A DNA stretch of 60,766 nucleotides from an uncultured Clostridia bacterium (lineage in GTDB: Bacteria; Bacillota; Clostridia; Oscillospirales; Ruminococcaceae), in the NCBI GenBank assembly GCA_947649285.1, contig CANSRB010000001.1, positions 1-60,766 on the forward strand, in the 5' to 3' direction. The number at the start of each line of letters is the position of its first letter. Position 1 is the stretch's first letter. The notes beneath the pieces were generated by a model, which did not search any database, was not told where the DNA came from, and saw only the letters and a program-made list of their open reading frames with translations. The position numbers and the translations under genes were made by a program. Positions 3,478 to 60,766 of this stretch are shown here, one piece after another.

Positions 3478-3493
3478 GAAAAAGGAGGCCGGG

Positions 3494-3970: not shown

Positions 3971-3989
3971 ACAGAAGGAGTGAAGGCTT

Positions 3990-38813: not shown

Positions 38814-38817
38814 GTTC

Positions 38818-42137: not shown

Positions 42138-42155
42138 GGCATAATAATAAACTAC

Positions 42156-42184
42156 TTGTGGCTGTTTTCCTTATATGATATAAT
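42156..42184 (+). promoter_or_regulatory. Strong sigma-70 promoter pointing into the cassette site
   Basis: TTGTGG-17-TATAAT with extended TG. Confidence 0.7.
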
Positions 42185-42193
42185 TTGAATGAA

Positions 42194-42209
42194 ACAAATC
42201 GGGATTTTA
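42194..42209 (+). repeat. 16-bp cassette-boundary site
   Basis: ACAAATCGGGATTTTA; near-identical to 59944-59959 and 60744-60759. Confidence 0.65.
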
Positions 42210-42221
42210 AGGGAGCAGCTT

Positions 42222-42746
42222 ATGGGAATAGGGATTTTGATATGCGGTTTAAACGGCTCGGGAAAAAGTACACTGGGAAAGGCTCTTGCACAGAAACTGC
42301 ATTTTTATTTTATAGATATTGAAGACTTGTATTTTCCTAAAACAAACCCTACCTATATTTATGCCGCTCCACGTACTCGTGAAGATGTTGAAATACTTTT
42401 GTTCAATGAGATTAAAAAACATGAAAATTATGTTTTTGCGTCTGTAAAGGGTGATTATGGAGAAGCTATGTATCCTTTTTTTCAATATGCTGTATTGATT
42501 GATGTTCCCAAAAACATTCGGATAGAACGAGTTAAAAATCGTTCCTTTCAGAAATTTGGCAATAGGATGTTATTCGGCGGGGATTTATATGAACAGGAAG
42601 AACGATTTTTTCATTTAGTCAAATCCAGAGCTGAAGATACCGTTGAAAAATGGATACAGTCTTTAAGCTGTCCTATTATAAGAATTGACGGAACAAAACC
42701 CATAGAAGAAAATATAAACTTTCTTATGGAACAAATAGAAAGATAA
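42222..42746 (+). CDS. AAA/adenylate-kinase-like P-loop protein (AT-rich)
   Basis: GLNGSGKST Walker A; IRIDGTKP; visibly lower GC than flanks. Confidence 0.85.
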   Translation: MGIGILICGLNGSGKSTLGKALAQKLHFYFIDIEDLYFPKTNPTYIYAAPRTREDVEILLFNEIKKHENYVFASVKGDYGEAMYPFFQYAVLIDVPKNIRIERVKNRSFQKFGNRMLFGGDLYEQEERFFHLVKSRAEDTVEKWIQSLSCPIIRIDGTKPIEENINFLMEQIER

Positions 42747-42960
42747 GTTCTATTTTATTGGGCAGTCATCCACCAATGAATAGCTGCCCACTTTAGATAT
42801 TTTAACGAATGGTTTGGCGAAGCCGCTTTCAGCAACACCAATCTGAAAAGGGAGCTTATAAACTGCGGTTTGACACCCCTGCCTTCCATGTAGTATAATA
42901 AGGAATGAAACCATATTTTCGAGAAAGGAAATTCCTCCCCACCGAGGAACGGTATTGCCG

Positions 42961-43464
42961 ATGACGCTGCTGATTCACGACCTCTTCCCCTACGAATGGG
43001 CGCTTTACGAAGGGCTTGTCCCTGCTGACACCTGCGTAATTACGCCCAAAGAAAGCGGCATTCAAAAATGTAAGGGCTGTCTTTCCTGCTGGTACCGCAC
43101 ACCCGGCCGCTGTATCCAAAGCGACGGCTTCGACGAACTCCCCCGGCTGTTCGGTGAAGCCTCCGCCCTGGTTTTTATTACGGAAATTATTTATGGCGGC
43201 TTCAGCCCCGAAGTCAAAACCGTGCTGGACCGCAGCCTGGGCTACCTGCTCCCCACTCTTGCCATGCGGAAAGAAAAGCTTTACCGGAACGCCCGCTTCA
43301 ATTTTGTCCCGCCGCTGAAAATCCTGGCTTACGGCGGAACCCAGATCGAGCAGGAGCATTTCAAAGGGATGGCCGCGGCGCTGGGAAAAACGCTCGATCT
43401 GGATAACGTCCAGATCTCTTTTGCCTTTTCCCGGGAAGAAATGAACATTGGGGAGGTCTTTTAA
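42961..43464 (+). CDS. Flavodoxin-fold Fe-S flavoprotein
   Basis: CKGCLSCW.RTPGRC, YGGFS. Confidence 0.75.
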   Translation: MTLLIHDLFPYEWALYEGLVPADTCVITPKESGIQKCKGCLSCWYRTPGRCIQSDGFDELPRLFGEASALVFITEIIYGGFSPEVKTVLDRSLGYLLPTLAMRKEKLYRNARFNFVPPLKILAYGGTQIEQEHFKGMAAALGKTLDLDNVQISFAFSREEMNIGEVF

Positions 43465-44087
43465 TGAATATTGCGCTGCTGAATGCCAGTCCGAAGCGGA
43501 TTGACAGCACCTCGGGCGTTTTACTGGAGGAAATGGAACCCATGCTCAAAGGGCGGAACCGGACCAAGCTGGTTTCCATCCTGGATTTTTCCCCCTTTAC
43601 CATGGCCGGCTATGACGCCCTGGTCGTTTCCTCCCCGGTCTATTTTGACGGGCTCCCCTCCGAGCTGATCCGCTGCCTGACCCAGCTGGAGGCCTATTTT
43701 CACGCTAACCCCAATCCAACCTACCTGGTTTACGGCATTGCCAACGGGGACGCGCCGGAATCCGAACGCACCCGCTATGCACTCTGGAGCCTTCAGCATT
43801 TCTGCAATGCCGCCGGCGTTCAATGGGCGGGCGGCCTGGGGATCGGCGGCGGCGGATTGCTGCGCGCACTGGCGGAAAAAGGCTGGGATCATAAATGGAA
43901 AGCCCCTGTCTACGACGGGCTGAGCGAGTTTGCGGAGGATATAGCCGCAAGGCGCTTGCTGAAAGATCACCGCTATGTCGAGTTGGCGCTTCCCCGCAAA
44001 AAATACCTGAAGAAATTGACGGCGGACGCCAAAATGCTGGCCAAAGAACACGGTTACCGCTTAAAAGATCTGGATGTTGAGGAGTAA
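43464..44087 (+). CDS. NAD(P)H-dependent FMN reductase-like flavodoxin
   Basis: NASPKR, SSPVYFDGLPS, GGLGIGGG; overlaps upstream stop. Confidence 0.75.
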   Translation: MNIALLNASPKRIDSTSGVLLEEMEPMLKGRNRTKLVSILDFSPFTMAGYDALVVSSPVYFDGLPSELIRCLTQLEAYFHANPNPTYLVYGIANGDAPESERTRYALWSLQHFCNAAGVQWAGGLGIGGGGLLRALAEKGWDHKWKAPVYDGLSEFAEDIAARRLLKDHRYVELALPRKKYLKKLTADAKMLAKEHGYRLKDLDVEE

Positions 44088-44125
44088 TCCTCACTGGAAT
44101 TCAACGAAAAAGGAGGAAGCCCGCC

Positions 44126-45529
44126 ATGAGATCGGATGAAACTTTGGACAATACCATGACGCAGGGCGTCATTTGGAAACAGCTCTTGAATTTCTTTTTC
44201 CCCATCCTGCTGGGGACCTTTTTCCAGCAGCTTTATAATACGGTAGACGCCATCATTGTCGGCCAGTTTGTCGGCAAGGAGGCGCTGGCGGCGGTCGGCG
44301 GCGCAACCGGCACCTTGATCAACCTGCTGGTTGGTTTCTTCGTCGGCCTTTCTTCCGGCGCGACGGTCATCATCTCCCAATATTACGGCGCCAGACGGGG
44401 CGAGGACACCAGCAAAGCGGTCCATACCTCCATGGCGCTGGGGGTTGTGGGCGGGGTTGCCCTGACCCTGATCGGTTTGCTGGTATCCCCTTGGGCGCTC
44501 CGCGCCATGGGCACGCCGGACGAAATCCTGGTCCATGCGCTGACCTATATCCGGGTCTACTTTTCCGGCATCATCTTTTCCCTGCTGTATAACATCGGCT
44601 CGGGAATCCTGCGGGCAGTCGGGGACTCCAAACGCCCGCTCTATATCCTGATCGTCTGCTGCCTGGTCAACCTAGCGCTGGATCTGATCTTCGTTGTCTG
44701 GATGAGGATGGGGGTATTGGGAGCCGCCCTCGCCACCTTCCTTTCCCAGCTTATCAGTGCGGCGCTGGTGCTGTTCTGCCTGCTCCGGAGCGATCAGGTT
44801 TACCGCCTTTACTTCAAAGAAATCCGGTTCTATCCGGAAATCCTGCGGGAGATTATCACCATCGGGTTCCCGGCCGGGCTGCAGTCCGTGCTCTATTCGA
44901 TTTCAAACGTGATGATCCAGGCCAGCATCAATTCCTTCGGCACCGACATCATCGCCGCATGGACAGCCTATGGAAAAATTGATTCCATTTTCTGGATGAT
45001 ACTGACCGCTTTTGGTGTGGCGATCACCACTTTCGCCGGGCAGAATTTCGGCGCGCAGCAGTACGACCGGATCCGCAAAGGAGTGCGGGTCTGCTCGGGT
45101 ATGGCCGCGGCCACCTCGGCCGGGCTGAGCCTGCTGCTGATCCTGACCAGCCAATACCTCTACCGGCTGTTTACCGACGATCCCGCCGTCATCGAAAAGG
45201 GGATCGAGATATTGAACACCCTGACTCCCTTCTATGTCACCTTCGTCTGTATTGAAATCCTGTCCGGTGCGGCGCGCGGGGCGGGCGACTCCCTCATTCC
45301 CACCATTATCACCTGCTTTGGCGTATGCGTGCTGCGGGTCGCCTGGATTTTAATTGCCGTCCCGCTTTATCCGGATGTCAAAACAGTCATTTACAGTTAC
45401 CCGATCACCTGGATTTTGACCTCGATCCTGTTTATCATCTACTACATACAAGGCGGATGGCTCCGCCGGCGGATTGCAAAAGCCGGATTCCCGCCTGAGG
45501 AGAGAAAGCGCCGCCACAAAACGGCTTGA
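44126..45529 (+). CDS. MATE efflux transporter
   Basis: QQLYNTVD, LRAVGDSKRP, GQNFGA; 12 TM. Confidence 0.93.
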   Translation: MRSDETLDNTMTQGVIWKQLLNFFFPILLGTFFQQLYNTVDAIIVGQFVGKEALAAVGGATGTLINLLVGFFVGLSSGATVIISQYYGARRGEDTSKAVHTSMALGVVGGVALTLIGLLVSPWALRAMGTPDEILVHALTYIRVYFSGIIFSLLYNIGSGILRAVGDSKRPLYILIVCCLVNLALDLIFVVWMRMGVLGAALATFLSQLISAALVLFCLLRSDQVYRLYFKEIRFYPEILREIITIGFPAGLQSVLYSISNVMIQASINSFGTDIIAAWTAYGKIDSIFWMILTAFGVAITTFAGQNFGAQQYDRIRKGVRVCSGMAAATSAGLSLLLILTSQYLYRLFTDDPAVIEKGIEILNTLTPFYVTFVCIEILSGAARGAGDSLIPTIITCFGVCVLRVAWILIAVPLYPDVKTVIYSYPITWILTSILFIIYYIQGGWLRRRIAKAGFPPEERKRRHKTA

Positions 45530-45570
45530 AAAAGATGCCCTGAACTGTGTTCAGGGCATCTTTTTATTTG

Positions 45571-46320
45571 TTATCCAAGTTCAGGGAGTCGTTTGAATCC
45601 TTCTCCTACCGGCTCTTCCGGATGATACTCCAACCCGATCAGGCCGGGATACCCCATCTTCTGCAAGCGCTGGAAAATCCAGGGGTAATTCAGCTCACCC
45701 CGATCCAATTCATGCCGCCCGGGATTTCCTGCCGCATGAAAATGCCCAACCCATTCCAGATTCCTTTCCAGCCTTCGAAGCAGGTCCCCTTCGCTGATCT
45801 GCTGATGGTATAGATCAAACAGCAGCCGTACCGCCGGGGAATCCACTTCTTGAATCAAACGGAAGCCCCTCTCAGAAGAGGTCAGAAAATAACCCGGATG
45901 ATCGATCCTGTCGTTGAGCGGCTCCAGCAGCAGGGTAATCCCTTCCGATTCCAGCAGCGGCGCCGCCTGCCTCAGCGTATGGACAATCCGTCCTTCCTGC
46001 ACCTCCGCCGGCTCGCCGGTATCGTTCCCGGTCTGAGCGATCAACCGCTTGCAGCGCAGGGATTTTGCGGCTTTCATGCTTTCCTGCAATCCCTGCAAAA
46101 AATCCGTTTCTTTCCCTTGCCCCGTCAATGGAACCAGCCGGGTACAGCAAGCGGCAATCTCCACCCTCATTTCCTGCGCGGCTTCGTTGATCTTCTGTAA
46201 GTCCTTATCCCACCAGGACCAGAATTCCACCGCCGGGAAACCCATCCGGGCGCTTTCCCGGATAGCCTGGGTCGGGTTCACCCCCGCATAAACCGCATCG
46301 ATACAAATTGAATATTTCAC
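45571..46320 (-). CDS. Hydroxypyruvate isomerase-like TIM-barrel protein
   Basis: AVEFW, LLEPLN, LFDLYH.Q, PGRHE, GLEY. Confidence 0.85.
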   Translation of the reverse strand: MKYSICIDAVYAGVNPTQAIRESARMGFPAVEFWSWWDKDLQKINEAAQEMRVEIAACCTRLVPLTGQGKETDFLQGLQESMKAAKSLRCKRLIAQTGNDTGEPAEVQEGRIVHTLRQAAPLLESEGITLLLEPLNDRIDHPGYFLTSSERGFRLIQEVDSPAVRLLFDLYHQQISEGDLLRRLERNLEWVGHFHAAGNPGRHELDRGELNYPWIFQRLQKMGYPGLIGLEYHPEEPVGEGFKRLPELG

Positions 46321-47087
46321 CGCTGTTTCTCCTCTTTGTATAGTCCGGGTGTTTCTTCCTCCAGAGCCAGCTCAGCCAGCAGCTTCCGGTCCTCCGGTGC
46401 AGGCTGGTAGCGCGCCATGAGATCCGGACGTTTTTCCTGCGTCCGCAAAAGCTGCTGCTTCCGCCGCCAACGGTCCACATTGGCATGATGCCCGGAAAGC
46501 AAGACTTCCGGCACCCGACGCTCCCGCCAGACCTCCGGCTTGGTATACTGGGGATACTCCAGCAGGCCGTTATAGTGGCTTTCCTCCTCATAACATTCAC
46601 TGGAGGAAAGCACCCCCTCGCACATCCGCGCAATCCCGTCCACCAAAACCAGCGCCGGCAGCTCCCCGCCCGTGAGGACATAATCCCCGATGGAAATTTC
46701 TTCGTCCACGATTTCTTCCAGAACCCGCTCGTCCACCCCTTCGTAATGCCCGCAAAGCAGCAGCAGGTTCTCCATCCGGGAAAGCTCGACGCAGCGCTGC
46801 TGGGTCAAGGTTTTTCCTTGGGGGGAGAGGTAGATCACATGAGGCTTGTCCGGAAGCTGGGCACAGACAGCCTCATAGCAGCGATAGATCGGCTCGGCCT
46901 GCATAACCATCCCCTTGCCGCCGCCATAGCAGGTATCATCCACCCGGCGATGCTTATCCAGGGTATAGTCCCGGATTTGATGGCAGTAAACCGAAATCCG
47001 TCCGGACCGTCTCGCCCGGCCCAGGATACTGGCCGACAACACCGCTTCGCAAAGTTCCGGAAAAAGGGTCGCGATATCAATCCGCAT
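46317..47087 (-). CDS. trmD: tRNA (m1G37) methyltransferase
   Basis: TLFPE, CGHYEGVDER, SIGDYVLTGGE. Confidence 0.97.
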   Translation of the reverse strand: MRIDIATLFPELCEAVLSASILGRARRSGRISVYCHQIRDYTLDKHRRVDDTCYGGGKGMVMQAEPIYRCYEAVCAQLPDKPHVIYLSPQGKTLTQQRCVELSRMENLLLLCGHYEGVDERVLEEIVDEEISIGDYVLTGGELPALVLVDGIARMCEGVLSSSECYEEESHYNGLLEYPQYTKPEVWRERRVPEVLLSGHHANVDRWRRKQQLLRTQEKRPDLMARYQPAPEDRKLLAELALEEETPGLYKEEKQR

Positions 47088-47589
47088 CGAACAGCCCCTC
47101 CAGCGGACGGATCCGCATAATCCCCTGATCCGGGTCCGTTTCTACAATCACCTGCCGGATAGCCGGGATCAGCACGGTTTTCCCCTCCTGGACGATGTGG
47201 TAAACGTCGTTCGCACCGGTCGGGCTGACCTCTTTCAAAATCCCGTACTCAATCGAGGGGTCATCCGCGTCCACCACCCGCAGCCCAATCAGATCCTGGA
47301 TAAAATAAGAGCCCTCCTCCAGCGGGAAATCCTCCCGGCGGACATACAGGAGCTTACCCCGCAGCCCGTTTGCCGCATCCACATCATCCGTCCCTTCCAG
47401 CTTGAGCACGGCTACATTTTTCTGTACCCGTGCGCGTTCTACCCGAACCGGCCGGGCGCCCTCCTCAAAATAGAGGGTTTTCAGCCCAACCAGCACCTCG
47501 GGGGAATCCGTCCAGGGATCTACCCGCACTTCCCCCTTCAGCCCGGTGACCGAAACAATCCGCCCTGCTTCTAAATATGGTTTTTTCAT
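47077..47589 (-). CDS. rimM: Ribosome maturation factor RimM
   Basis: GLKGEV, DLIGL, GANDVY, LIPAI. Confidence 0.95.
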   Translation of the reverse strand: MKKPYLEAGRIVSVTGLKGEVRVDPWTDSPEVLVGLKTLYFEEGARPVRVERARVQKNVAVLKLEGTDDVDAANGLRGKLLYVRREDFPLEEGSYFIQDLIGLRVVDADDPSIEYGILKEVSPTGANDVYHIVQEGKTVLIPAIRQVIVETDPDQGIMRIRPLEGLFDAD

Positions 47590-47721
47590 CGCTTCCCCCT
47601 TTTTAGCTGGGTCCCGCACCCCTGACAGGGCCGCTGCGGGAATTGATTTTCCTTCGTCTGTAAGATCGACTGCCTGTTTTCCCGAAAAAGATAAAAACGG
47701 GAAGCTGACGCTTCCCGTTTC

Positions 47722-47955
47722 TCAGTCGATCTCAACCGCGACCTTTTGATTTACGCGTGTTGCGCCGGCACGCATCACTACCCGAACCGCCTTGGCAATC
47801 CGGCCCTGCTTGCCGATGACTCTGCCCATATCCTCCGGAGCCACATGGAGATGGTACACCACCACGTTCTCCTCGTTTGGTTCGTCAACTGTGACGGTCA
47901 CGCCATCCTTGTTGACCACCAACCCCCGGGCGATTGTTTCCAGCAATTCTTTCAT
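47722..47955 (-). CDS. khpA: KH-domain RNA-binding protein KhpA
   Basis: DMGRVIGKQGRIAKA. Confidence 0.93.
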   Translation of the reverse strand: MKELLETIARGLVVNKDGVTVTVDEPNEENVVVYHLHVAPEDMGRVIGKQGRIAKAVRVVMRAGATRVNQKVAVEID

Positions 47956-47982
47956 TTCAACCTCCGGCCCAAAAACCCGGCA

Positions 47983-48225
47983 CTAGATGGTGCCGTTTTC
48001 TTTGAGAATCTTCTTGACGGTATCGGTCGGCTGTGCGCCGTTTGCAATCCACTGCTTTGCTTTTTCCCCATCTACATGAACCACGGAAGGATTCTTGGTC
48101 GGGTCATAGTAGCCGATCTCCTCGATGAAGCGGCCGTCTCTCGGATATCTGGAATCTGCAACAACAATGCGGTAAAATGGAGCTTTCTTTGCGCCCAAAC
48201 GGCGCAGTCTGATTTTTACTGCCAT
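47983..48225 (-). CDS. rpsP: 30S ribosomal protein S16
   Basis: [24 protein letters not shown]. Confidence 0.98.
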
Positions 48226-48316
48226 TTTCAGCACCTCCTTATTCTTTTTGTTTTTCATTCTATATTACACCCTGCTTCGCAGGAGTAACGGCTTTTATAC
48301 GGCCGCGCGGCACCCG

Positions 48317-49660
48317 TTACATTGGGAACCGGGGAAACATTTTACGGCGGCCCTTTTTCCCTTTGGCAGAACCGGTCATCTGCTTCATCATCTTCTGCAT
48401 CATTTCGAACTGCTTGAGCAGACGGTTGACATCCTCCACCTTGGTGCCGCTTCCGGCGGCAATCCGGCGTTTGCGGCTGGGATTGATGATCGAAGGCTTT
48501 TCCCGTTCCTCCTTGGTCATCGAGGTGATAATCGCTTCGGTCAGAGCCAGCTTTTTATCGCTGTCCCCCAAATCCTCTTCCTTCACCTTATTCCCAATCC
48601 CCGGGAGCATGGAGATCACCTGCTGCATGGAACCCATATTTTTAATCTGCCGCATCTGATCCAGCAGGTCGTTCATATTGAAGCTGTTCTGCTGCATTTT
48701 CTGGATCATCTGGGCGGTCTTTTTCTCATCCAGGGAATCCTGCGCCTTTTCGATCAGGGTCAGGACATCGCCCATCCCCAAAATCCGGGAGGCCATCCGC
48801 TCCGGATGGAAGGGTTCCAGCTCATCCAGCTTTTCGCCGATACCGGCAAATTTGATCGGCTTTCCCGTCACAGCCAGCACCGAAAGCGCCGCCCCGCCCC
48901 GGGTATCGCCGTCCAGCTTGGTCAGCAGAACGGAATCAATCTCCAGCGCGTTGTTGAAGGCATCCGAAACATTCACCGCATCCTGCCCGGTCATCGCATC
49001 GACCACCAGCATAATTTCATGCGGCGAAACCTCCGCCTTGATTTCCTGTAATTCCTTCATCAGGGTTTCGTCGATATGCAGGCGCCCGGCGGTATCCAGA
49101 ATCACGATATCATTGCCGTGATCCTTGGCGTGCTTCACAGCCTCCGCCGCAATCCGGACCGGATTCCCCTGGCCCATCTCGAATACAGCCGCACCAGCCT
49201 GTTCCCCGACCACCTTCAGCTGGTCGATCGCTGCCGGACGGTAAACGTCACAGGCAGCCAGCAGCGGCCGATGCCCCTGCTTGAGGAAATATTTCGCCAG
49301 CTTGGCGGCGTGAGTCGTTTTCCCGGCACCCTGAAGCCCGCACATCATGATAATACAAGGCGGCTTGGAAGGCATCTGGATCCGCTGATTCTGCCCGCCC
49401 ATCAAAGCGCAGAGCTCATCGTTGACGATTTTGACGACCTGCTGTGCCGGGGTCAGGCTTTCCAGCACTTCTGCGCCGACGGCACGTTCACTGACGGTTT
49501 TGACAAAATCCCGCACCACTTTATAACTGACGTCCGCTTCCAGCAGCGCCATTTTGACTTCGCGCATTGCGTCTTTGATATCCGCCTCGTTCAACTTCCC
49601 CTTGGAGCGGAGCCGCTTAAACGCGTTGGACAGCTTGTCGGAAAGGGATTCAAAGGCCAA
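48317..49660 (-). CDS. ffh: Signal recognition particle protein
   Basis: GLQGAGKTT, DTAGR, TKLD, Met-rich M domain. Confidence 0.98.
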   Translation of the reverse strand: MAFESLSDKLSNAFKRLRSKGKLNEADIKDAMREVKMALLEADVSYKVVRDFVKTVSERAVGAEVLESLTPAQQVVKIVNDELCALMGGQNQRIQMPSKPPCIIMMCGLQGAGKTTHAAKLAKYFLKQGHRPLLAACDVYRPAAIDQLKVVGEQAGAAVFEMGQGNPVRIAAEAVKHAKDHGNDIVILDTAGRLHIDETLMKELQEIKAEVSPHEIMLVVDAMTGQDAVNVSDAFNNALEIDSVLLTKLDGDTRGGAALSVLAVTGKPIKFAGIGEKLDELEPFHPERMASRILGMGDVLTLIEKAQDSLDEKKTAQMIQKMQQNSFNMNDLLDQMRQIKNMGSMQQVISMLPGIGNKVKEEDLGDSDKKLALTEAIITSMTKEEREKPSIINPSRKRRIAAGSGTKVEDVNRLLKQFEMMQKMMKQMTGSAKGKKGRRKMFPRFPM

Positions 49661-49685
49661 GAGCGTTCCTTCCTTTCGCCTGTAA

Positions 49686-50057
49686 TCAGGAATTTTTCTT
49701 CAGATAATCTTCAATAATCCCCAGCGCCTGGCTGATATTTTCATCAATCGCGTGGGAGTAGTGATAGGTACTGTTTTCTTTCTGGATCCGTTCGAGCACA
49801 TAACGGACTTCCTGGAACGACTTCATGGTTTCGATATATTGGTCGAACATCCGGAGCTTATCCTCCAGCTCGAACAAAAATACCTCGCCGCGTTTGATCG
49901 AGTCCCGTACACCCTGTCGGGTGATATTTTCATGCTCGGCGATTTCTGCGAGGGAAAGATCCTGATTATAATAAAGGTCGATCGCATCCCGCTGCTTTTC
50001 GGTCAGCATCTCGCCATAAAAATCCAACAGGACCGCAACATCCAGGTTCTTGCTCAT
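49686..50057 (-). CDS. ylxM: YlxM DNA-binding protein
   Basis: LLDFYGEMLTEKQ...DLSLAEIA; upstream of ffh. Confidence 0.93.
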   Translation of the reverse strand: MSKNLDVAVLLDFYGEMLTEKQRDAIDLYYNQDLSLAEIAEHENITRQGVRDSIKRGEVFLFELEDKLRMFDQYIETMKSFQEVRYVLERIQKENSTYHYSHAIDENISQALGIIEDYLKKNS

Positions 50058-50405
50058 TCCGCCGCCTCCTCGCCTATTGTGTAAAGCCAAAAACTTTACA
50101 TTTGTTATTATACTGGATTCCCTCTGGTTTGTCAAGAGCCAAATTCCGACCCCGTCCGCAAAAATTCCGCCTGTTTCCCCCTGCCGAACTGGACAGTTTG
50201 CCGAACCGGCCCCAACGGTTTTCTTTTTCCGGCGCGGGGCAGACATTACGCCCGGTTGACAACCCGCCTGAAATCCTCTATCCTATAATACTGTATTCCC
50301 CCCGGCGGCGCTAAAATATTCCTGCCTGTCTTTATGGAAAGAAACCGATGGAGCAGAAGCCCCCCTCCGGCAGGGAAACCCGATACAGAAAGGAACTGGA
50401 TCTGA

Positions 50406-51107: not shown

Positions 51108-51121
51108 AAAGAATCAAACTT

Positions 51122-51304
51122 TATAATCGGCACACCCTCAAATCGATACCCGATTTGAGGGTCAGGCTTTGCCTGTTCGCGCATAAAATGCGCTGTGCGC
51201 CGTCTATGAAGCCCTACCGCATGGCCGCTTCGTGGCCCACTGCGGCATATTATGCCGCAGTATTGAAAAGAAGCTAATGCTTCTTTTCAAGTGCGTTGAC
51301 TATA
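51122..51304 (-). repeat. Structured TA-ended repeat element, copy E3 (183 bp, reverse orientation)
   Basis: Reverse complement reads TATAGTCAACGCAC-hairpins-GGCCACGAAGCGGCC-GGCTTCATAG-hairpins-TATA. Confidence 0.75.
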
Positions 51305-51537
51305 AAGAGGAGCAGCCCCCGAGCTGTCGAGACATTCCTCCGACGTTCAGTCGGGGCGGCCCGACAGACAGCAGAGAGACATCCCCACATGGCAGACCGT
51401 GCGAAAACCCTTGAACCTTTCATGATACTGCTTTTTTATGAAACGCGCATGTTCTTTTCTCCCCCGCACTTGACAATCCCTTGCCAGGTGGCCTATACTA
51501 AATGTAATAGAACCTTACTAGAAGGAGGACCCGCCGT

Positions 51538-52719: not shown

Positions 52720-52786
52720 AGCAACCCGCCGGACGGAAATTCCCATCCGGCGAGTTGAAATAAACTACAGCAAAGGGGAGCCGCAT

Positions 52787-53242
52787 ATGGATAGAAGCGA
52801 AAGGGCCGTATTTACCAATATGTGCATGATCTTGGACGGGGAGGGCAACGTATTGATCCTGGACCGGGTGGATCCAAGCTGGCCCGGCATTACTTTTCCG
52901 GGCGGCCATGCCGAAAAGGGCGAATCCTTTACGGACGCTATCATCCGGGAGGTTTTTGAGGAAACCGGGCTGACGGTATCGGACCTTCAGATGTGCGGCG
53001 TCAAAGACTGGGTCGAGGAGGATGGAACCCGAACGGTCGTGTTTCTCTACAAGACGGATCAGTTTGAGGGGAAATTGGTTTCCTCGGATGAAGGGGAGGT
53101 CCGATGGGTCCCGCTGGCCGCGCTGCCCGGGATGAAGCTGGCAAGCAGTATGCCAAATATGCTCAAGCTGTTTTGCAGCGATACGCTGACGGAGCACTTT
53201 TTCTATCTGGAAAACGGGGAATGGATCGAAACGCTGAAATAA
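52787..53242 (+). CDS. NUDIX hydrolase (8-oxo-dGTPase-like)
   Basis: PGGH...IREVFEETGL, SSDEG. Confidence 0.88.
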   Translation: MDRSERAVFTNMCMILDGEGNVLILDRVDPSWPGITFPGGHAEKGESFTDAIIREVFEETGLTVSDLQMCGVKDWVEEDGTRTVVFLYKTDQFEGKLVSSDEGEVRWVPLAALPGMKLASSMPNMLKLFCSDTLTEHFFYLENGEWIETLK

Positions 53243-53328
53243 CCCCGCAAAAAACAAACAAACCGCCGGACAGGGATCACCTGCCCGGCGGTTTGTTCAG
53301 AGGTTATTGGGAATAGGGGAGATCTCTT

Positions 53329-53718
53329 CTATTCCCATTTCGTCCAAGGGTCGGGATTGATATCTTCAATCCACTCGCCCCTTCCATCTGATACATAGAC
53401 CTTTTTCTCCAAAAGAGAAATCGCGAATGAATTTAAGTATTCATCTTCCGAAAAGTATACCTTGAACACGCTGTATTCCTCTTGATGCAGTTCAATAACC
53501 GCATCAAAAACAAATCGGTAAACACCCTCGCGATATCCCCAGCAATCCGTTAGATAACGGATCAAGGTTTCTCGAGCGGAATCCATATCGGGCTGTGTAT
53601 CATTCGCTATGGAGGGATTTTCCGCCAGCATGGGCCTTTCATTTTCCGTTTGATCCACCTGGCAGCCTACCAGCAGCAGACTGAACCCTATTATTGCCGC
53701 AGCGAGTCGCTTTTTCAA
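53329..53718 (-). CDS. Putative lipoprotein
   Basis: TTG start after GGAGG; MKKRLAAAIIGFSLLLVGC lipobox. Confidence 0.7.
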   Translation of the reverse strand: MKKRLAAAIIGFSLLLVGCQVDQTENERPMLAENPSIANDTQPDMDSARETLIRYLTDCWGYREGVYRFVFDAVIELHQEEYSVFKVYFSEDEYLNSFAISLLEKKVYVSDGRGEWIEDINPDPWTKWE

Positions 53719-53795
53719 GCCTCCATACCTCCTCAAACAAAAAACCAGCCAACCCGTTTCCTGCTGAATCTCTATAGCATATCTGAAGCCCCCGC

Positions 53796-53963
53796 CTACT
53801 CTTCCTCCTCATCTCCACCGATAAACATCTCTTCAGTGGTTTGCTGGGCCAGCTTAAGCTTCCGGGTAATATCCGAAAGTGCGTTCGTGGTGGCCTCCAG
53901 CGCATCTATCGCTGTTGCCATCCGGCCCGCCAAATGATAGTACATCGCTTTGTAATCCGGCAT
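53796..53963 (-). CDS. 55-aa conserved hypothetical protein (MPDYKAMYYHLAGR...LAQQTTEEMFI), missed by the ORF track
   Basis: Translated by hand; AAGGGG RBS; resembles a small helical family I recall from Oscillospiraceae. Confidence 0.7.
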   Translation of the reverse strand: MPDYKAMYYHLAGRMATAIDALEATTNALSDITRKLKLAQQTTEEMFIGGDEEEE

Positions 53964-54060
53964 TCTGCCATCCCCTTTACCTTGCTTTTGGAATTTCCTG
54001 ATGATAAAAAAACGCTTCGGAAAATCCGAAGCGTTTTTTTATGTTCGGCTTTGAAACCGT

Positions 54061-54153
54061 TGGCGGAGAAGGAGGGATTCGAACCCTCGATGAGCTATTA
54101 ACCCATACACGAGTTCCAGTCGTGCGCCATAAACCGGGCTAGGCGACTTCTCC
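54061..54153 (-). tRNA. tRNA-Ser (GGA)
   Basis: 93 nt with long variable arm; anticodon loop CTGGAAC; CCA; TTGACA-17-TATAAT promoter at 54183-54211. Confidence 0.95.
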
Positions 54154-54214
54154 AAAGCATCTTTTCTATCAGATGCTTGTTTATTATACCCGATCCGGGC
54201 AGGGTTGTCAAGCC

Positions 54215-55282
54215 CTAAATAAAATAAAAATTGGTTTCCCAAGCCGGGACATAAGGATGATGCCGCAAATAGACCCGGTATGCCGGATTCAGTTTCAGAA
54301 TCTGCAAAGGCAGCGCAAACAAGTCCTCGTTTTTATGATAAGCGCTCAGCATGATTTTGGGCTTCTGCTCCCGGATGGTACGGGAGGCACCCCGGACCGC
54401 TTCCGATTCCGCCCCTTCCACATCCAGCTTGAGCAGGCTGACCCGGCCCGTACAGACCCGGTCCACCGTATCCACCTCAACCGCCCGGCTGCCCTCCTTG
54501 GAAAGCATGGAGTTCCGGCCGCCCTTCCCGCCCTTGAAATATAGGGTGCCCGGTTCGCTCCAAGCGCCGAACGGATACGCCTCTGCCCGCTCTACCCCGG
54601 ATTCCTTCAGATAGGCAGTCAGCTTCCGGAAGTTCCGGCTGTCCGGTTCAAAGGCGATAATCCGTTCATAAGAGGGGCAGTACCGCAAAAACTCCCGCAC
54701 CGTATCCCCGTTATACGCGCCTAAATCCACATAGGCTTCTTCGGGGGAAAGCTCCAGCAGCCGGTAAGCCTCGGCAGTTTCGGTTTCACAGTCCCGCAGA
54801 TAGCGGATTTTACCGCTGACCTTATAATCCAGCACATCCCGGAATACCCGACGGGACTGTTCGTCCGCCAGCCGGCGGTAGACCTCGTCCAGCTCGGGCT
54901 CATGCCGCCGCAGGTAATCCAGGTCAAAAACCTGCTCATCCACCGGGATGACTGGAACATCCGGCGCGTAAAACTCGCATTCTTCGTCCATCTGATTCAG
55001 GCGGGAAAGCATCGGTTCATAGTCGATGGCAAAGGCCAGCAGCGCAATCAGATCCGGATGCTCCGCGCGGACCTCGCCGTATTTCCGCACCAAATGCCCC
55101 TTGAAGGAATGCCCCCGGACAAATTCGTCACTGGCGAAAAATCCCGCAATGGAAATGCCCCGCCGTTCCAGTACGGAAAGAATTTTCTCCGCCCCATCCC
55201 CCATGCCGTACAGAAAAATCGGACGGCCGGCCCGGCTTAAATGAGTCCAGAGATCCTGCTTTTCATGTAAAAGCTCCTGCAT
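54215..55282 (-). CDS. FkbM-family methyltransferase
   Basis: YVDLGAYNGD, FEPD, KLDVEGAE, SAYH. Confidence 0.9.
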   Translation of the reverse strand: MQELLHEKQDLWTHLSRAGRPIFLYGMGDGAEKILSVLERRGISIAGFFASDEFVRGHSFKGHLVRKYGEVRAEHPDLIALLAFAIDYEPMLSRLNQMDEECEFYAPDVPVIPVDEQVFDLDYLRRHEPELDEVYRRLADEQSRRVFRDVLDYKVSGKIRYLRDCETETAEAYRLLELSPEEAYVDLGAYNGDTVREFLRYCPSYERIIAFEPDSRNFRKLTAYLKESGVERAEAYPFGAWSEPGTLYFKGGKGGRNSMLSKEGSRAVEVDTVDRVCTGRVSLLKLDVEGAESEAVRGASRTIREQKPKIMLSAYHKNEDLFALPLQILKLNPAYRVYLRHHPYVPAWETNFYFI

Positions 55283-55286
55283 GGGC

Positions 55287-56321
55287 CTAAACCGCGTACA
55301 GGCAGATCAGACGGAAGGTGTTCTCCGCCCCATCCCGATGGGAGCGCTCATAGCCATGGGACGCATAAACCCCCGGGCCGATCAGGGCATGGCGCAGGTC
55401 ATTCCCGGCGCTGACGGCCGCGTCTGCGTCCGAGCCATAATACGGATAAACGTCCACCGCGTAATTCAGCCCGTTTTCTTTCGCCAGCCGGATCAGCCGG
55501 GTGGTCATATCATAATGATACGGCCCGGCGCTGTCCCGCGCGCAGATGGACACCATCTGCTCATCACAAAGCAGGCCCTCGCCTACACAGCCCATATCCA
55601 CAGCCAGCATCTCCGTCACATCCGCCGGGACAGAGCCGGAGCCGCCATGCCCGCACTCTTCATAAACCGTAAAATGCAGGTAAACCCGGCGGGAAAGGGA
55701 AACCCCCTCTTCCTTGAGATACCGCGCATAGCCCAGTAGGATTGCCGCACTCAGCTTATCGTCCAAAAACCGGCTTTTGATATAACCGGAAGCCGTTACC
55801 CGGGTGCGCGGGTCGAAGCAGACGATATCTCCCGGCTGGATACCCAGCGCCAAGGTGCTCTCCTTGGAGGCGGTGGCTTCATCGATCACTACCTCCATGG
55901 TCGTGCTGTCCCGCTTTTCGGTACGGTAGTCTTTATTGACATGGATCGACGCGTTGTTCAGCTGATAGGTCCCCTCATAACGCTTGCCCTCCCGGGTGAT
56001 AATCGTCACGTTTTCCGCCTCGGTATTGGGATTGGCAAACCCGCCGGAAGCCAGCCGGAGCCGCCCGTTTGACTTGACCTCGGCGACCATCCCGCCCAGC
56101 GTGTCCACGTGTGCCGAAAGCAGCAGCCCTTCCGAGCCTTCCGGCCCGCCTAAACAGCAGAGCACGCCGCCCTTGCGGGTCTGTTCCGGCGCATAGCCCA
56201 GCTTTTTCAATGCGTGGAACACGTAATCCGCGGCGTCTTTAGTATAACCTGTCGGGGAATGGATCGCCGTCAGCTCGGAGAGAGTGCCCAGGATCCCATC
56301 CACATAAGAAGAAATTTCCAT
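55287..56321 (-). CDS. M42 family metallopeptidase
   Basis: SPTG, AHVDTLG, LDDK, EE, GSDA, SHGYER. Confidence 0.92.
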   Translation of the reverse strand: MEISSYVDGILGTLSELTAIHSPTGYTKDAADYVFHALKKLGYAPEQTRKGGVLCCLGGPEGSEGLLLSAHVDTLGGMVAEVKSNGRLRLASGGFANPNTEAENVTIITREGKRYEGTYQLNNASIHVNKDYRTEKRDSTTMEVVIDEATASKESTLALGIQPGDIVCFDPRTRVTASGYIKSRFLDDKLSAAILLGYARYLKEEGVSLSRRVYLHFTVYEECGHGGSGSVPADVTEMLAVDMGCVGEGLLCDEQMVSICARDSAGPYHYDMTTRLIRLAKENGLNYAVDVYPYYGSDADAAVSAGNDLRHALIGPGVYASHGYERSHRDGAENTFRLICLYAV

Positions 56322-56381
56322 GATATCGCATCCTTTCTGTTTACAGCCATTATAACCTATTCTGCGGCAGATTTCCAGTAA

Positions 56382-56428
56382 TACTATTCTTGATAAAAAG
56401 ATTAAAATCGTTTTATTGAGAATTCGTA
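56382..56428. repeat. Internally deleted (47-bp) copy of the 40368 element
   Basis: TACTATTCTTGATAAAAAGAT...GTTTTATTGAGAATTCGTA. Confidence 0.7.
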
Positions 56429-56554
56429 TAATGCCGCTGCTTTCATGGAAAATTCCGCGTATCCACACCCTGCCTTCTGTATTTTCCGTTTCAGGAAACC
56501 CGGTTAAAAAATTCCCCTCTGCACAGGTTTCCTGCACAGAGGGGAGGCTGGTTC

Positions 56555-56842
56555 TTAATTCAGCGCCTTTTTCAGCCAGATCGACGCGATATCCAGCGCC
56601 GGATACAATCCTACCTTTTCGCTTTTTTTCACGATAATATCCTGCGGCTTGATCTCCTTGCCGGTACGCATCAGCTGGACAATCACATTGTTGGCGACCT
56701 CCTCGCCGTCAAGCTTCGCCTGATCTACAATCTGAAGCATACAGACGTATTCGTCCGTCATGCTGCCATAATAGATGGTGTTCCCGCTGCGGACCAGCGG
56801 TTTGCCTTTATAGCACAAAAACTTCTTTTCCGCTTCATTCAT
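56555..56842 (-). CDS. Conserved hypothetical protein
   Basis: YKGKPLVRSGNTIYYG; GGAG RBS. Confidence 0.75.
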   Translation of the reverse strand: MNEAEKKFLCYKGKPLVRSGNTIYYGSMTDEYVCMLQIVDQAKLDGEEVANNVIVQLMRTGKEIKPQDIIVKKSEKVGLYPALDIASIWLKKALN

Positions 56843-57000
56843 TCTGCATCCTACTCCCCCAGGGCTGCGGGGATTCTCCTCTCTTCCAAATTCTGCAAAG
56901 GACGAAAGCCTGCCCTTCTGAGCTTCCGCCCGGTGTCTTTTTTCATCTCTATTATGCTTTCTATTATAAAGAATAAACCAATTTTTGTCAAATTTGAAAT

Positions 57001-57444
57001 CTAAACAATCTTTGAACTTTGGCTGGGCATTTCCTTCACCATCCAGACATGGGGGCAGTGCTCGTCCAGATACTCCTCACCCTCCTGCCGGTATCCCAGC
57101 TTTTCATAAAATCCCCGGGCCTGCTTCTGCGCCGAAAGTACAAACCTTTTCGCCCCGAGCGCCGCCGCCTTTTCCTCCAGCTGCTCCATGATTTTCCTTC
57201 CCAATCCGGCTCCCCGATATTCCGGCAGGACGCAGATCCGTCCAAAATGCCAGGAATCCTCCCCTTCCGGGAAGACCCGCGCCGTAGCAACCGGCCCCCC
57301 GGATTGACGGACTATCAGATGCCAGGCTGTTTCATCCGTCGAATCGAACTCGTCGTGAAAGCCCTGCTCCTCCATAAAAACTTTTTTTCGAACAAAGAAG
57401 CTGCCTTCAAAATCCGTTTTGCCCATACTCCAAGAAAATTCCAT
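57001..57444 (-). CDS. GNAT acetyltransferase (ElaA/YjcF-like)
   Basis: VRKKVFMEEQ, GRICVLPEYRGAGLG, AQ..A.GFYEKLGY. Confidence 0.9.
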   Translation of the reverse strand: MEFSWSMGKTDFEGSFFVRKKVFMEEQGFHDEFDSTDETAWHLIVRQSGGPVATARVFPEGEDSWHFGRICVLPEYRGAGLGRKIMEQLEEKAAALGAKRFVLSAQKQARGFYEKLGYRQEGEEYLDEHCPHVWMVKEMPSQSSKIV

Positions 57445-57648
57445 CTGATTTCCTCCTTTTCCAATTTCGTCTGGCTCCGCGCCGCTGTCAAAGCGGGCCG
57501 CGCAGGCATAGAATGCTCTGCGGGGCCGATTGCCCCGCGCGTTCTTCCCCCTTGTTTGGAAAGAACGCAGAATACAGAATAATACCGGCCGTTTTTCCCG
57601 ACTGTTTCAAAAACAGGACTGTATAAAACCAGCAGATTTGCCCCAAAC

Positions 57649-57840
57649 TATAGCCGAAACACTTCAAAAGAATCATTTTGATTCTTTTGAAGCCTGCGGC
57701 AAAGAACCGCCGCAGGAGGCCGCAGAAGCGGCCTCGGTTCGGACTTCATAGTTAACACTGGTGTGCAGAGCGCACAGCCGACGGGCTACGACCGCCGGCT
57801 GAAAAACGCAATTTGCGTTTTTTCAAGTGTGTTGACTATA
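57649..57840 (+). repeat. Structured TA-ended repeat element, copy E2 (192 bp)
   Basis: Terminal IRs 17/21 identical; GGCCGCAGAAGCGGCC hairpin and GACTTCATAG core. Confidence 0.75.
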
Positions 57841-57888
57841 CAAACAGCCGGCCCCACTATTCTGAAAAATAAAGGAGCGTGAATCAAC

Positions 57889-58245
57889 GTGTCAATACGC
57901 CGGGGAGAAATCTATTACGCGGATTTAAGCCCAGTCGTAGGAAGCGAGCAGGGCGGGATCCGTCCTGTGTTGATTGTACAAAACGACGTAGGCAACAAAT
58001 ACAGCCCCACCGTGATCGCCGCGGCGATCACCAGCCAGCATGAAAAAGCCAGGCTGCCCACCCATATCGAGCTTTCCACCCAGAGCAGCGGCCTGCAAAA
58101 AAATTCGATCGTTCTACTCGAACAGATCCGAACCATAGATAAAAAACGTTTAAAAGAAAAAATGGGCAAACTCGACAGCAGCTCCATGAACCGGATCGAC
58201 AATGCGCTGACCGTCAGCTTTGGGCTGGGACGCCGTCCGGAATAG
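57889..58245 (+). CDS. mazF: MazF/PemK (NdoA-like) endoribonuclease toxin
   Basis: [29 protein letters not shown]. Confidence 0.95.
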
Positions 58246-58485
58246 CCCCCGTTTTTAGAAGGAAGTCTCAAGCACAGGATGTCAAATGCTACATACCTGA
58301 TGCTTCTCCGGTTTCGGCTGATCTGTTTGATACCGTCGCTTACGCACTTGGCCTGTTGAATCAGGCCAAGTGCGTTTACTATAGCACAAAAATAGTTGAA
58401 AAGCAAATTCCATTGTATTATAATAAAAGAAAAATCCCCTGTTTTCGCCGCGTTCCCGGCAGAATACGGGAGAATGGAGTTTGAA

Positions 58486-59055
58486 ATGAAAATTTTAGTC
58501 GAAACTTCTGCACGGCATCTGCACGTTACCAAGGCAGATCTGGAAACCCTGTTCGGCGCAGGCGCCGCTTTGTCCCATAAAAAAGACCTGTCCCAGCCGG
58601 GGCAGTTCGCCACCAATGAAAAAGTCACCGTTGTAGGCCCCCGCGGCCAGCTGAGCATGAGCATCCTCGGGCCGGAGCGCCCCAGCACTCAGGTGGAGGT
58701 TTCCCTCTCCGACGCACGCGCCCTCGGCCTGAACCCGCCCATCCGCGAATCCGGGGATATCGCCGGAAGCGCACCCTGCAAGCTGGTCGGCCCCTGCGGC
58801 GAAGTCGAGCTGAGCGAAGGGGTGATTGTGGCGAAACGCCATATCCATACCACACCGAAGGACGCCAAGGAACTGGGCGTTTCAGACAAGGAAGTGGTCT
58901 GGGTGAAGATTGAAACCGGCGACCGCAGCATGATCTTGGGCGATGTGGTGGTCCGCGTCAGTGAAAAATTCGCTACCGCGATGCATCTCGACACGGACGA
59001 AGCCAACGCGGCGCACTGCTCCGGTGTGGTCTACGGTGAAATCGTCAAAATTTGA
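58486..59055 (+). CDS. pduL: Phosphate propanoyltransferase PduL
   Basis: SARHLH, LSQPGQF, KRHIH, MHLDTDEANA. Confidence 0.93.
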   Translation: MKILVETSARHLHVTKADLETLFGAGAALSHKKDLSQPGQFATNEKVTVVGPRGQLSMSILGPERPSTQVEVSLSDARALGLNPPIRESGDIAGSAPCKLVGPCGEVELSEGVIVAKRHIHTTPKDAKELGVSDKEVVWVKIETGDRSMILGDVVVRVSEKFATAMHLDTDEANAAHCSGVVYGEIVKI

Positions 59056-59221
59056 TTCTGAAATATAATGAATAAAGGGCGGTTTTGCCGCCCTTTATTC
59101 ATTTACGTGAATTTAAGCAAACCAAAATGAATGCATTTATTTCATCAAGAATTTATGTTATCGTTCCCCAACGACATACCTTCCATACGCCGAATAATCT
59201 GCAATACTTAGGACAATTAAG

Positions 59222-59947
59222 ATGAATAAAATAAATACAAAAGGACTTATATGGAGAGTATTTATCCCTACAGCAGCTTTGAGCTTGAGCTATTTGATAT
59301 TGGGGCATTTTTGCAGTATACCGCATATTCTATTATTTTGCATTTTAGGGACATTTATTTTAATGCCGATAGAGCTCGGGATGATTCTGAAAGCAAGCAA
59401 ACGTGAATACGGGAAGTACTCCCTTCAAAGCGCGTTTGCCGGACAAGAAAAGTGCTCCATTTGGAAAGTGCTGATGATTGCGTTTGTGCTTTTCGGAATG
59501 GCAGGTCTGCTGTCCGCTTTTATCGCGCCGATTGAAAATCAAGTTTTTGCAGGGATCAGAAGCGATCTGCTTCAGCATTTGCCAAGCGGCTTTGATTGGA
59601 CAAATTACGAGTATCTGAAAACTTTTTCAAAGCCAATGCTGGTTTTGACCTGCGTCTATTATGGGATTTTCAATGTGTTCATTGGGCCGGTAACAGAGGA
59701 ATTGTTTTTCAGAGGATATTTAACCTCGCATTATGAAAAGCAAGGTCCGATTACCCCCATCCTAATTGCCGTTTTGTTTTCGCTCTATCACTTTTGGCTT
59801 CCCTTTAACAACCTATTCCGCATATTGGTATTTGCGCCGGCTGCGTATGCAGCGTATAAAAAAAGGGACTTATACATCAGCCTGTGTTTTCATTGCCTGT
59901 GCAATCTCTTTTCAACATTAAGTTTTATATGGGCGGTATTCGCATAA
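59222..59947 (+). CDS. CPBP (CAAX/Abi) intramembrane metalloprotease
   Basis: EELFFRG, FSLYH, HCLCN; AT-rich. Confidence 0.85.
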   Translation: MNKINTKGLIWRVFIPTAALSLSYLILGHFCSIPHILLFCILGTFILMPIELGMILKASKREYGKYSLQSAFAGQEKCSIWKVLMIAFVLFGMAGLLSAFIAPIENQVFAGIRSDLLQHLPSGFDWTNYEYLKTFSKPMLVLTCVYYGIFNVFIGPVTEELFFRGYLTSHYEKQGPITPILIAVLFSLYHFWLPFNNLFRILVFAPAAYAAYKKRDLYISLCFHCLCNLFSTLSFIWAVFA

Positions 59948-59959
59948 ATCGGGATTTAT
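59944..59959. repeat. 16-bp cassette-boundary site containing both convergent stop codons
   Basis: ATAAATCGGGATTTAT; TAA at 59945-47 (+) and TAA at 59956-58 (-). Confidence 0.7.
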
Positions 59960-60735
59960 TTTAGCAATAATATCCTCTCGTATGCTAATGCCACAAATTC
60001 ATTTGCCGATAAGCCCTTATACAATGAACTTGTTTTATGATTGCGGTTAAAATCTACCTTCAAAGTCAGATATCTAATGTCGTTGCATTTTTTTAGCTTC
60101 TGTTTTATTATATCCCACTTTATGTTACCATCATAAGGGAGTAGATGTGTATCATCATCTCCGCAATTATCATCCAAGTGTACCGCAAATAATTTACTAC
60201 CATATCGTGATAAACAATCAGCATCTCGATGATTAAAGTATTCGTGTCCACTGTCATAGCAAAAACCTAAATACTCTGATTTTATATTTTCATAAATATA
60301 ATCAAGGTGCTGTATACTATCCAGATTTTCAAGAGCCAAGTTTATCTTCTTTTTTTCAGAAAAATCTACCAATCTTTTCATTCGCTCTAAACCAATTTGT
60401 GCAACCTTGGGTTTCGAGGATAATCGCGTAATATGCATAACGACTGTGGGGATATTGTAATGTTCACAATCGCTAATACACGATGCGATTGTACGAAGAT
60501 AATCGTCACCATTCAATCCATCTATCCATAAATCATTAGGATTATTGCATGGTGCATGAATATAGTCAATATCAAGCCCCAATTTTCTTGCCATCTCAGG
60601 TTGACTATTTTTATCCTGCAATTCATCCCCCCACCAAAGAGATACCGCATCAAATCCTGAACTCCTTATCATTTGCAATCGTTGCTGTATGGGTAATTGA
60701 TAGCTGAACCATGAAAACATTCCAAAACCAGACAT
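59956..60735 (-). CDS. Sugar phosphate isomerase/epimerase-family TIM barrel (AT-rich)
   Basis: ALEN, CYDSGH, VHLDDN, HLLPYDG. Confidence 0.85.
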   Translation of the reverse strand: MSGFGMFSWFSYQLPIQQRLQMIRSSGFDAVSLWWGDELQDKNSQPEMARKLGLDIDYIHAPCNNPNDLWIDGLNGDDYLRTIASCISDCEHYNIPTVVMHITRLSSKPKVAQIGLERMKRLVDFSEKKKINLALENLDSIQHLDYIYENIKSEYLGFCYDSGHEYFNHRDADCLSRYGSKLFAVHLDDNCGDDDTHLLPYDGNIKWDIIKQKLKKCNDIRYLTLKVDFNRNHKTSSLYKGLSANEFVALAYERILLLK

Positions 60736-60743
60736 ATTCCTCC

Positions 60744-60759
60744 ATAAATCCCGATTTGT
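60744..60759 (-). repeat. 16-bp cassette-boundary site directly before the RBS
   Basis: Minus strand ACAAATCGGGATTTAT-GGAGG-AAT-ATG. Confidence 0.7.
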
Positions 60760-60766
60760 TGAGCCG

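Follow-up and report, generated by a model that had tools for sequence, protein, structure and literature searches.

A polarised 16-bp palindrome in gut Clostridia as a candidate site of gene exchange

A 60,766-nucleotide stretch of DNA from an uncultured Clostridia bacterium of the family Ruminococcaceae (assembly GCA_947649285.1, contig CANSRB010000001.1, positions 1 to 60,766; hereafter the window) carries a 16-bp quasi-palindrome (the 16-mer) at the borders of small AT-rich genes. We found that partners are exchanged within the core of this site with its polarity retained, that cargo genes are exchanged between carriers, and that carriers occur empty. The 16-mer is very probably a recombination site, and if it is one we lean towards a serine enzyme; the reading that we favour, at a probability of roughly 0.55, is a gene-exchange site worked by a serine recombinase in trans. 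This is apparently a gene-swapping system of gut Clostridia that has not been described so far. A first-pass annotation had placed the motif at four positions, all of which were found again on re-inspection of the sequence (Table 1); it missed the mini-transposon that carries one of the genes, the GG/CC polarity of the site centres, and the fact that the window layout is itself a recombination product.

Rearrangements between strains at the 16-mer

In the window, a promoter arm (the 'x' arm) leads into a 17.7-kb housekeeping block that begins with a P-loop gene and ends with a CPBP gene, and an oppositely oriented TIM-barrel gene (TIM gene) lies at the contig end. We compared 13 congeners, the closest of which (genome G501) is 96-97% identical. 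In G501, the promoter arm known from contig C64 is joined to the P-loop gene inside the core, giving a complete 755-bp element, and the CPBP gene meets the start of the TIM gene, again inside the core. Of the TIM gene the first 186 bases remain there, and they are fused to window position 41953 read backwards. In the 12 other congeners, no CPBP gene was found at the corresponding place.

We also read out six sequencing runs from five studies, as contigs (X2, X4, X6, X7, X10 and X13). In run X4, an independent metagenome from another study that is more than 99% identical, 42195 is joined to 59946 and 59959 to 60743 on opposite strands; both joints are on one 3015-base contig and share 12 and 14 bases, and the C64 arm is the loose end before 42193. 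The X4 layout is that predicted for G501 before its deletion. The window-type junction at 42194 is spanned in X2, X6, X7 and X13 and the one at 59944 in X2, X6 and X7; among the pieces listed for X10, neither junction is spanned.

The 17.7-kb block and the TIM gene therefore stand in another order and orientation in G501 and X4, rejoined at the 12-14-bp core. The X4 layout becomes the window layout through two inversions, both of them between GG cores in opposite orientation, and GG polarity is retained at every window join. The three layouts of the window DNA differ solely by joins within the core, there is no duplication or footprint at the 16-mer joins, and the inversions are conservative. 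Because the window joins share 12-14 bases, the cut position cannot be mapped from them. That breakpoints varying between strains should fall at the motif had been anticipated in the first-pass annotation, and they do so in G501, in run X4 and in a pair of peptidase-S51 cassettes described below. The quasi-palindrome was also rightly placed at two loci, but these are not independent cases, because both are ends of one rearranged segment.

The carrier of the P-loop gene is split by inversion in the window. The 8-bp duplication that follows 42854 is matched by a second copy at the end of C64, so both ends once belonged to one element, and this target duplication is intact in the G501/X4 layout only. 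Judging from G501, where the gap is 4 bases, contigs C1 and C64 would be adjacent in this genome as well. In four runs, many other contigs pile onto the 3' arm and end at 42853-56, which is the end of the element.

Carriers, site anatomy and spread

The P-loop carrier, about 0.75 kb long, is a mini-transposon without a transposase. It ends in 25-bp terminal repeats, is flanked by an 8-bp target duplication and includes its own promoter. On its 3' side the P-loop gene is followed by a conserved arm of some 110 bases, made up of site, hairpin and terminal repeat, which recurs on other contigs: profile searches found 5' arms on six (C3, C64, C42, C147, C12 and C68) and 3' arms on eight at E<1e-6. 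The arms terminate in 25-bp inverted repeats, and 8-bp target duplications are present at C3, C42 (7/8) and C147. The 'x' arm represents a second carrier family, with related arms on contig C106 and in genome G493; it adjoins the P-loop gene in the window and the 3' end of the TIM gene in run X4.

When the genome collection was scanned with the hairpin only, we found 105 loci (full-flank DNA for 80), 55 of which have the right terminal repeat, while the other 50 include variants and chance matches. Seventeen are complete, meaning both ends and a target duplication with at most one mismatch; they measure 481-848 bp and carry one short gene or open reading frame each and no transposase. Complete elements in other Clostridia hold at least 12 different genes, judged by translations, and most record titles of the hairpin loci name Oscillospiraceae or Lachnospiraceae. 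In a more permissive count over 53 loci, 27 had the 5' arm and 18 the duplication. In the same 53 loci the 16-mer, which was absent from the query, stands at a fixed register before the hairpin (2.1 mean mismatches in 12 positions, as compared to 7.3 when shifted), and the centre of this 3' site is CC in 33. Twenty-two loci were read by eye, and two of them (L124 and L107) are empty carriers, in which the promoter arm, a single 16-mer, the 3' arm and the duplications are present. The cargo is varied: 32 of 34 chosen proteins have a Pfam match (GNAT, glyoxalase, APH, methyltransferases, metallo-beta-lactamase folds and others), and the DNA of a hexapeptide acetyltransferase cargo is 65-66% like vat genes. 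A second mini-transposon at G000 C42:2549-3358 has a frameshifted TIM-barrel cargo, 33% identical to the window TIM protein, and at L140 a left terminal repeat directly follows a right one, which suggests tandem insertion of two mini-transposons.

The carrier likely moves by a separate DDE transposase supplied in trans. The terminal repeat gave 73 matches in viral contigs, none of which passed the filters, so no autonomous transposon was found there. The IS1595 transposase domain (PF12762) was not found in G000; it turned up in 5 of 151 family genomes, and 0 of 12 loci carried these two ends. In plasmids, queries with the 3' arm and with the 'x' arm gave no match or three weak ones. A BLAST-type search with the 3' arm in 300 order genomes had none among the best 2 candidates per genome, although a pattern scan did find the arm.

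To describe the site we used 50 units picked by script, GG/CC being fixed in the viral and metagenome queries but not in the carrier scan. The 5' centre is GG in 33 units and the 3' centre CC in 36; GG is followed by CC in 26 units and by GG in 3. The full site measures 12+6+12 with AAA-6 bp-TTT at its heart, and its carrier-side arm reaches about CTGCYCGAYAAA. Beside CC, the gene side reads TT in 32 of 36 sites and the carrier side is variable, an asymmetry that would fit a short central overlap. A -10 box lies within 45 bases in 21 of the 50 units, and in 18 of these 21 its spacing to the site is 7 bases.

The degenerate pattern of the first-pass annotation is weak by itself (2 window matches at no more than 1 mismatch, 0.57 expected, and 13 of 100 shuffles reaching 2). 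The exact 12-mer core is enriched, with 3 copies in the window as compared to 0.04 expected and 7 in the genome as compared to 1.4 (third-order Markov model). A matrix scan of the source genome gave 55 matches and the reversed genome 11, and the pattern AYAAAYYSSRRTTTRT found 330 sites in 150 of 301 order genomes versus 35 in 34 for the reversed control (counted from the table). These order-wide counts, together with the carrier loci, bear out the earlier expectation that the motif is enriched at the borders of accessory genes.

Sites occur on several kinds of carriers. Arrays behind a single promoter are found in G475 and G396 (loci L066 and L067), and metagenome matches to a CC-site/GG-site pair are arrays behind one promoter in 7 of 7. 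The L067 array (G475:C7) has an alkyltransferase, a Vat-like acetyltransferase and a PC4/YdbC gene. G381 has tandem units from another carrier family, viral contigs have sites around single inserted genes, and integrative elements also carry the site. A given gene recurs on more than one carrier, and one kind of carrier holds various genes. The G381 chromosome and phage PV036413.1 share a peptidase-S51 cassette with 97.3% identity over 659 bp; the match starts at the 5' site and extends as far as the CC in the 3' site, and the next two bases differ. An alkyltransferase cassette heads one array and lies within two others, with identity beginning at the site. In the L204/L192 cassette pair the match stops about ten bases before the 3' site, which shows that some pairs are inexact.

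Other settings were also found. In G336 (L050-L064), 35 site copies are the ends of doublet units like repetitive extragenic palindromic (REP) elements, often beside another short arm family; these units could be non-coding cargo or a derived miniature inverted-repeat transposable element. In G119 the sites are mostly within coding repeats, and in L195 and L196 the site lies inside GIY-YIG-like nuclease genes and spells part of their motif, probably by coincidence. First viral scans for adjacent site pairs gave one irrelevant giant-virus match and one empty result, and symmetric 'empty' sites in phages gave 10 matches, none at a fixed place beside an integrase.

Table 1. Features of the window that bear on the 16-mer
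Feature	Position	Strand	Remark
Promoter arm, second carrier family 'x'	41954..42193	+	hairpin 42071-42135; extended -10 at 42176-42184
5'-type site, GG centre	42194..42209	+	before ribosome-binding site (RBS) of AAA_18 gene; breakpoint relative to G501 and run X4
17.7-kb block (flavodoxin-like, MatE, trmD, rimM, ffh, pduL, others)	42194..59959		opposite orientation to flanks in G501 and X4
Cassette gene, AAA_18 / P-loop kinase-like protein, 174 aa, GC 0.34	42222..42746	+	Pfam AAA_18
Decayed 3'-type site containing P-loop stop codon	42743..42758	+	13/16 to 3'-type consensus derived afterwards
Hairpin in carrier 3' arm	42760..42789	+	first bases double as outer arm of site
Mini-transposon right terminal inverted repeat, 25 bp	42830..42854	+	left repeat and promoter at end of contig C64
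8-bp target duplication	42855..42862	+	twin before left terminal repeat on C64 and in G501
CPBP/Rce1-like gene, stop in a site, GC 0.41	59222..59947	+	Pfam Rce1-like
GG-centred site common to two stop codons	59944..59959	+	holds TAA of CPBP (+) and TIM gene (-); joins CPBP to TIM start in G501 and X4
Cassette gene, AP_endonuc_2 TIM-barrel protein, 259 aa, GC 0.35	59956..60735	-	between two inverted sites
5'-type site, GG centre on minus strand	60744..60759	-	before TIM RBS; breakpoint relative to G501 and X4
Final 7 bases of mini-transposon 5' promoter arm	60760..60766	-	remainder on contig C64; adjacency probable from G501

The GC contents of the three genes compare with 0.52 for the window. 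The P-loop gene has an RBS-supported start and its stop codon at 42744-46, within a site copy that has 11/16 identity to the inverted form of the window site. The first-pass annotation had placed a strong promoter outside the first site; there is a promoter outside it, but of another form, since we found only the extended -10 and the promoter scanner listed no -35/-10 pair there. An Rfam scan of 41000-43500 gave no match above the gathering score. The CPBP gene has no full upstream site, as had been noticed before, and a half-site candidate 66 bases upstream (59149-56) is too short to count. Elsewhere in the window, dispersed repeat families lie at 51121-51306 (about 185 bases with an internal palindrome) and 56387-56431, each with about 20 or more genome copies, and three tRNA-like genes were seen by eye on the minus strand at 38543-38895.

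The exchange reaction and its enzyme

We propose that the 16-mer is the core at which single promoterless genes were rejoined to different carriers in gut Clostridia, probably through a serine recombinase that acts in trans and would cleave the central GG/CC. The carriers (mini-transposons, arrays, phages and integrative elements) give the promoter, usually by a -10 box 7 bases before a GG site, and the cassette gene terminates in a CC-centred site. A GG x GG cross would insert or excise a gene together with its downstream spacer, as in the arrays, and a second cross, CC x CC, would replace the resident gene of a single-gene carrier. Between two oppositely oriented sites the intervening DNA would invert, which may be the route by which the TIM gene and the 17.7-kb block flipped. 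A central cut would fit the S51 pair and the base counts, and a 2-bp crossover is described for the Tn4451 serine integrase in the part of the literature available to us (PMC5704250).

Several observations weigh against this proposal. The serine assignment draws on one clean cassette pair plus base counts; many sites are decayed, and GG at the 5' centre in 33 of 50 units was partly fixed by the queries. The centres of the empty carriers L124 and L107 are AA and TA rather than GG or CC. Neither an intermediate between the X4 and window layouts nor free cassette circles were seen in the contigs. Homologues of the P-loop gene (29 loci) and of the TIM gene (29 loci) are mostly without sites, so these genes are not obligate cassettes. 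Only 1 of 54 recombinase loci in five site-rich genomes has even a weak site within 1.5 kb, and the distribution of the C8 small serine recombinase over the families differs from that of the sites (in f1, 2 of 18 genomes as compared to sites in 16 of 18).

No recombinase is encoded near the window sites, in agreement with the earlier suggestion that the enzyme lies elsewhere; as to a recombinase that co-occurs with the sites, the family tallies of both the small serine and the small tyrosine recombinase do not follow them (tallies read by eye, related genomes not being independent). The C27 small tyrosine recombinase was rejected on these tallies. Large serine recombinases are found near a few arrays (L066, L181/182/186, L207 and L471) at no fixed position, and no profile match of score 10 or more was found inside the genes at six large serine or resolvase loci scanned. 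IntI (TIGR02249) was over the cut-off in 0 of 5 site-bearing genomes, three of which are fragmented metagenome-assembled genomes, in a test that had no positive control among its 14 control genomes. The IS1595 transposase was set aside as the enzyme, with no match in G000 and none of the 12 loci having these ends, and so was RAYT, with no Y1 domain found in G000, G501 and G475; the domain is present in G336 and G381.

The arm-6 bp-arm geometry of the full site, including its AAA-6 bp-TTT heart, is also what a cassette system run by a tyrosine recombinase might use, like Acinetobacter pdif, and the best candidate would be an Xer-like enzyme; we regard this as unlikely, though it is the alternative that survives best. 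The C58 Xer-like gene is single-copy and present in 58 of 61 order genomes, a palindrome of cassette-site geometry lies upstream in 16-19 of 30 orthologous loci, and the palindrome of the source genome agrees with the cassette arm in 7 of 11 positions. The three window sites that recombined are identical in all six central bases, genes are bounded by inverted sites as described for pdif modules in the available part of PMC9771954, and a host enzyme would account for use by many kinds of elements. However, C(-5) and T(-9) are invariant in the Xer-upstream arm, at positions where the cassette arms have A and mostly C, and the centre of the Xer-upstream palindrome is AT-rich; the S51 cassette moved between carriers that differ at 2 of the 6 central bases of their 3' sites; and, as said, the C27 enzyme does not track the sites. 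The Xer-like gene and the conserved palindrome (G000 C58:3055-3095 and 3125-4123; L002, L255-L284) lie roughly midway along the coordinates of two closed genomes and are likely a difSL-like module. A canonical-looking dif motif also lies at G000 C27:7867, about 1.1 kb from the small tyrosine recombinase gene, as 1 of 3 short-pattern matches; the cassette site is unlike the three canonical-looking dif motifs in the genome, and neither type of dif candidate is proven.

An improbable alternative is that there is no dedicated recombinase and the palindrome is a protein-binding or structural motif where transcription starts and ends, with joins arising by microhomology or by template switching at hairpins. 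The 5' site starts at about the predicted +1, given its 7-base distance from the -10 box, the centres of one cassette pair (L100/L137) are locally inverted in appearance, and no enzyme was found. Two inversions among three 12-14-bp cores in strains more than 99% alike, with polarity retained, argue for recombination instead, as do sites within stop codons, cargo exchange at both ends and empty carriers; an operator would need neither a polarised centre nor a copy at the gene end.

It is quite improbable that the joins were made by a transposase (the carrier DDE enzyme, or HUH/RAYT acting on single-stranded hairpins) with the 16-mer as element end or target. The 35 G336 sites do act as terminal repeats of REP doublets in a genome with Y1 genes, and the carrier ends are transposon ends, but Y1 was not found in the three genomes named above, the joins lack a duplication or footprint and the inversions are conservative, and the site is also in carriers without these terminal repeats. 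Finally, the alternative layouts are hardly credible as assembly errors at a short repeat: although all of the evidence is from contigs and the window contig ends 7 bases from a site, the shared stretch is just 12-14 bases, which is shorter than the usual assembly words, G501 and X4 agree independently on two joins while four runs agree with the window, and the target duplication is intact in only one layout.

Meaning and comparison with known systems

To our knowledge, integrons are hardly known in gut Clostridia. It is possible, at a little short of an even chance in our judgement, that these bacteria have an independently evolved cassette system of their own, in which a short polarised serine-cut site would be a plug common to mini-transposons, prophages, integrative elements and chromosomal arrays that captures, expresses and replaces single genes (Vat-like, GNAT, APH and glyoxalase genes included) and inverts housekeeping blocks as a side effect. 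If this is true, it explains how small AT-rich accessory genes, many of them of detoxifying or resistance type, gain promoters without integrons and transfer among chromosomes, transposons and phages. With the site as a marker, mobile genes could be mined in about half of the order's genomes, and the site would be a source of chromosome inversions within species. Because the site is short and a strain pair already shows products, the missing enzyme can be sought directly. No description of the system was found in the open literature, as distinct from subscription papers, ISfinder and supplements, and the parts available of PMC3025954 and PMC8138268 hold no match to the cassette site.

The carrier is close to known transposon families. 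Mobile insertion cassettes are passenger elements without a transposase. Like these and the IS1595 transporters MTnSag1 and tISCpe8, as far as PMC5704250 and PMC6542083 were available, the carrier has 25-bp repeats, an 8-bp duplication and one passenger and is found in Firmicutes; unlike the transporters, it has no internal or matched transposase, an internal exchange site bounds its variable passenger, and empty copies exist. The XerS/difSL module, in which difSL is placed before xerS (PMC1914069, available in part), is matched by the order's Xer-like gene with its palindrome of cassette-site geometry just upstream. That palindrome is separate and single-copy and has other arms and another centre, whereas the cassette site is multi-copy and dispersed.

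We took the integron definition and the R box from the available part of PMC9892861. As in the integrons and clusters of attC sites lacking integron-integrases (CALINs) described there, cassettes are promoterless, RBS-bearing and single-gene, they are co-oriented behind an external promoter outside the first site, arrays have double-box spacers and stand without a nearby enzyme, and the cargo is of GNAT, VOC and resistance type. In contrast, the cassette site is a 16-30-bp palindrome with a GG/CC centre and without GTTRRRY or RYYYAAC boxes (R boxes, G|TTRRRY and complement, were found in 0 of 50 units before starts and 1 of 50 near stops), there is no IntI over the cut-off, genes lie between inverted sites, and chromosomal blocks are inverted. 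Of the integron-like, site-specific capture and shuffling system that the first-pass annotation proposed, the site-specific capture and shuffling of genes in gut Clostridia is supported and the kinship to integrons is not, there being neither attC boxes nor IntI over the cut-off.

The likeness to the XerC/XerD-dependent pdif modules of Acinetobacter, again from the available part of PMC9771954, lies in short, inversely oriented sites that flank genes, shuffling at these sites and an enzyme acting in trans, and if the enzyme were Xer the system would rank as a pdif-module variant. The cassette site differs in being symmetric, not dif-like by the tests made, and tight against the RBS and stop codon, it is found in chromosomes, phages and mini-transposons, and its cassettes are promoterless. 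Taken together, the cassette system works like both integrons and pdif modules, yet by the tests made it belongs to neither.

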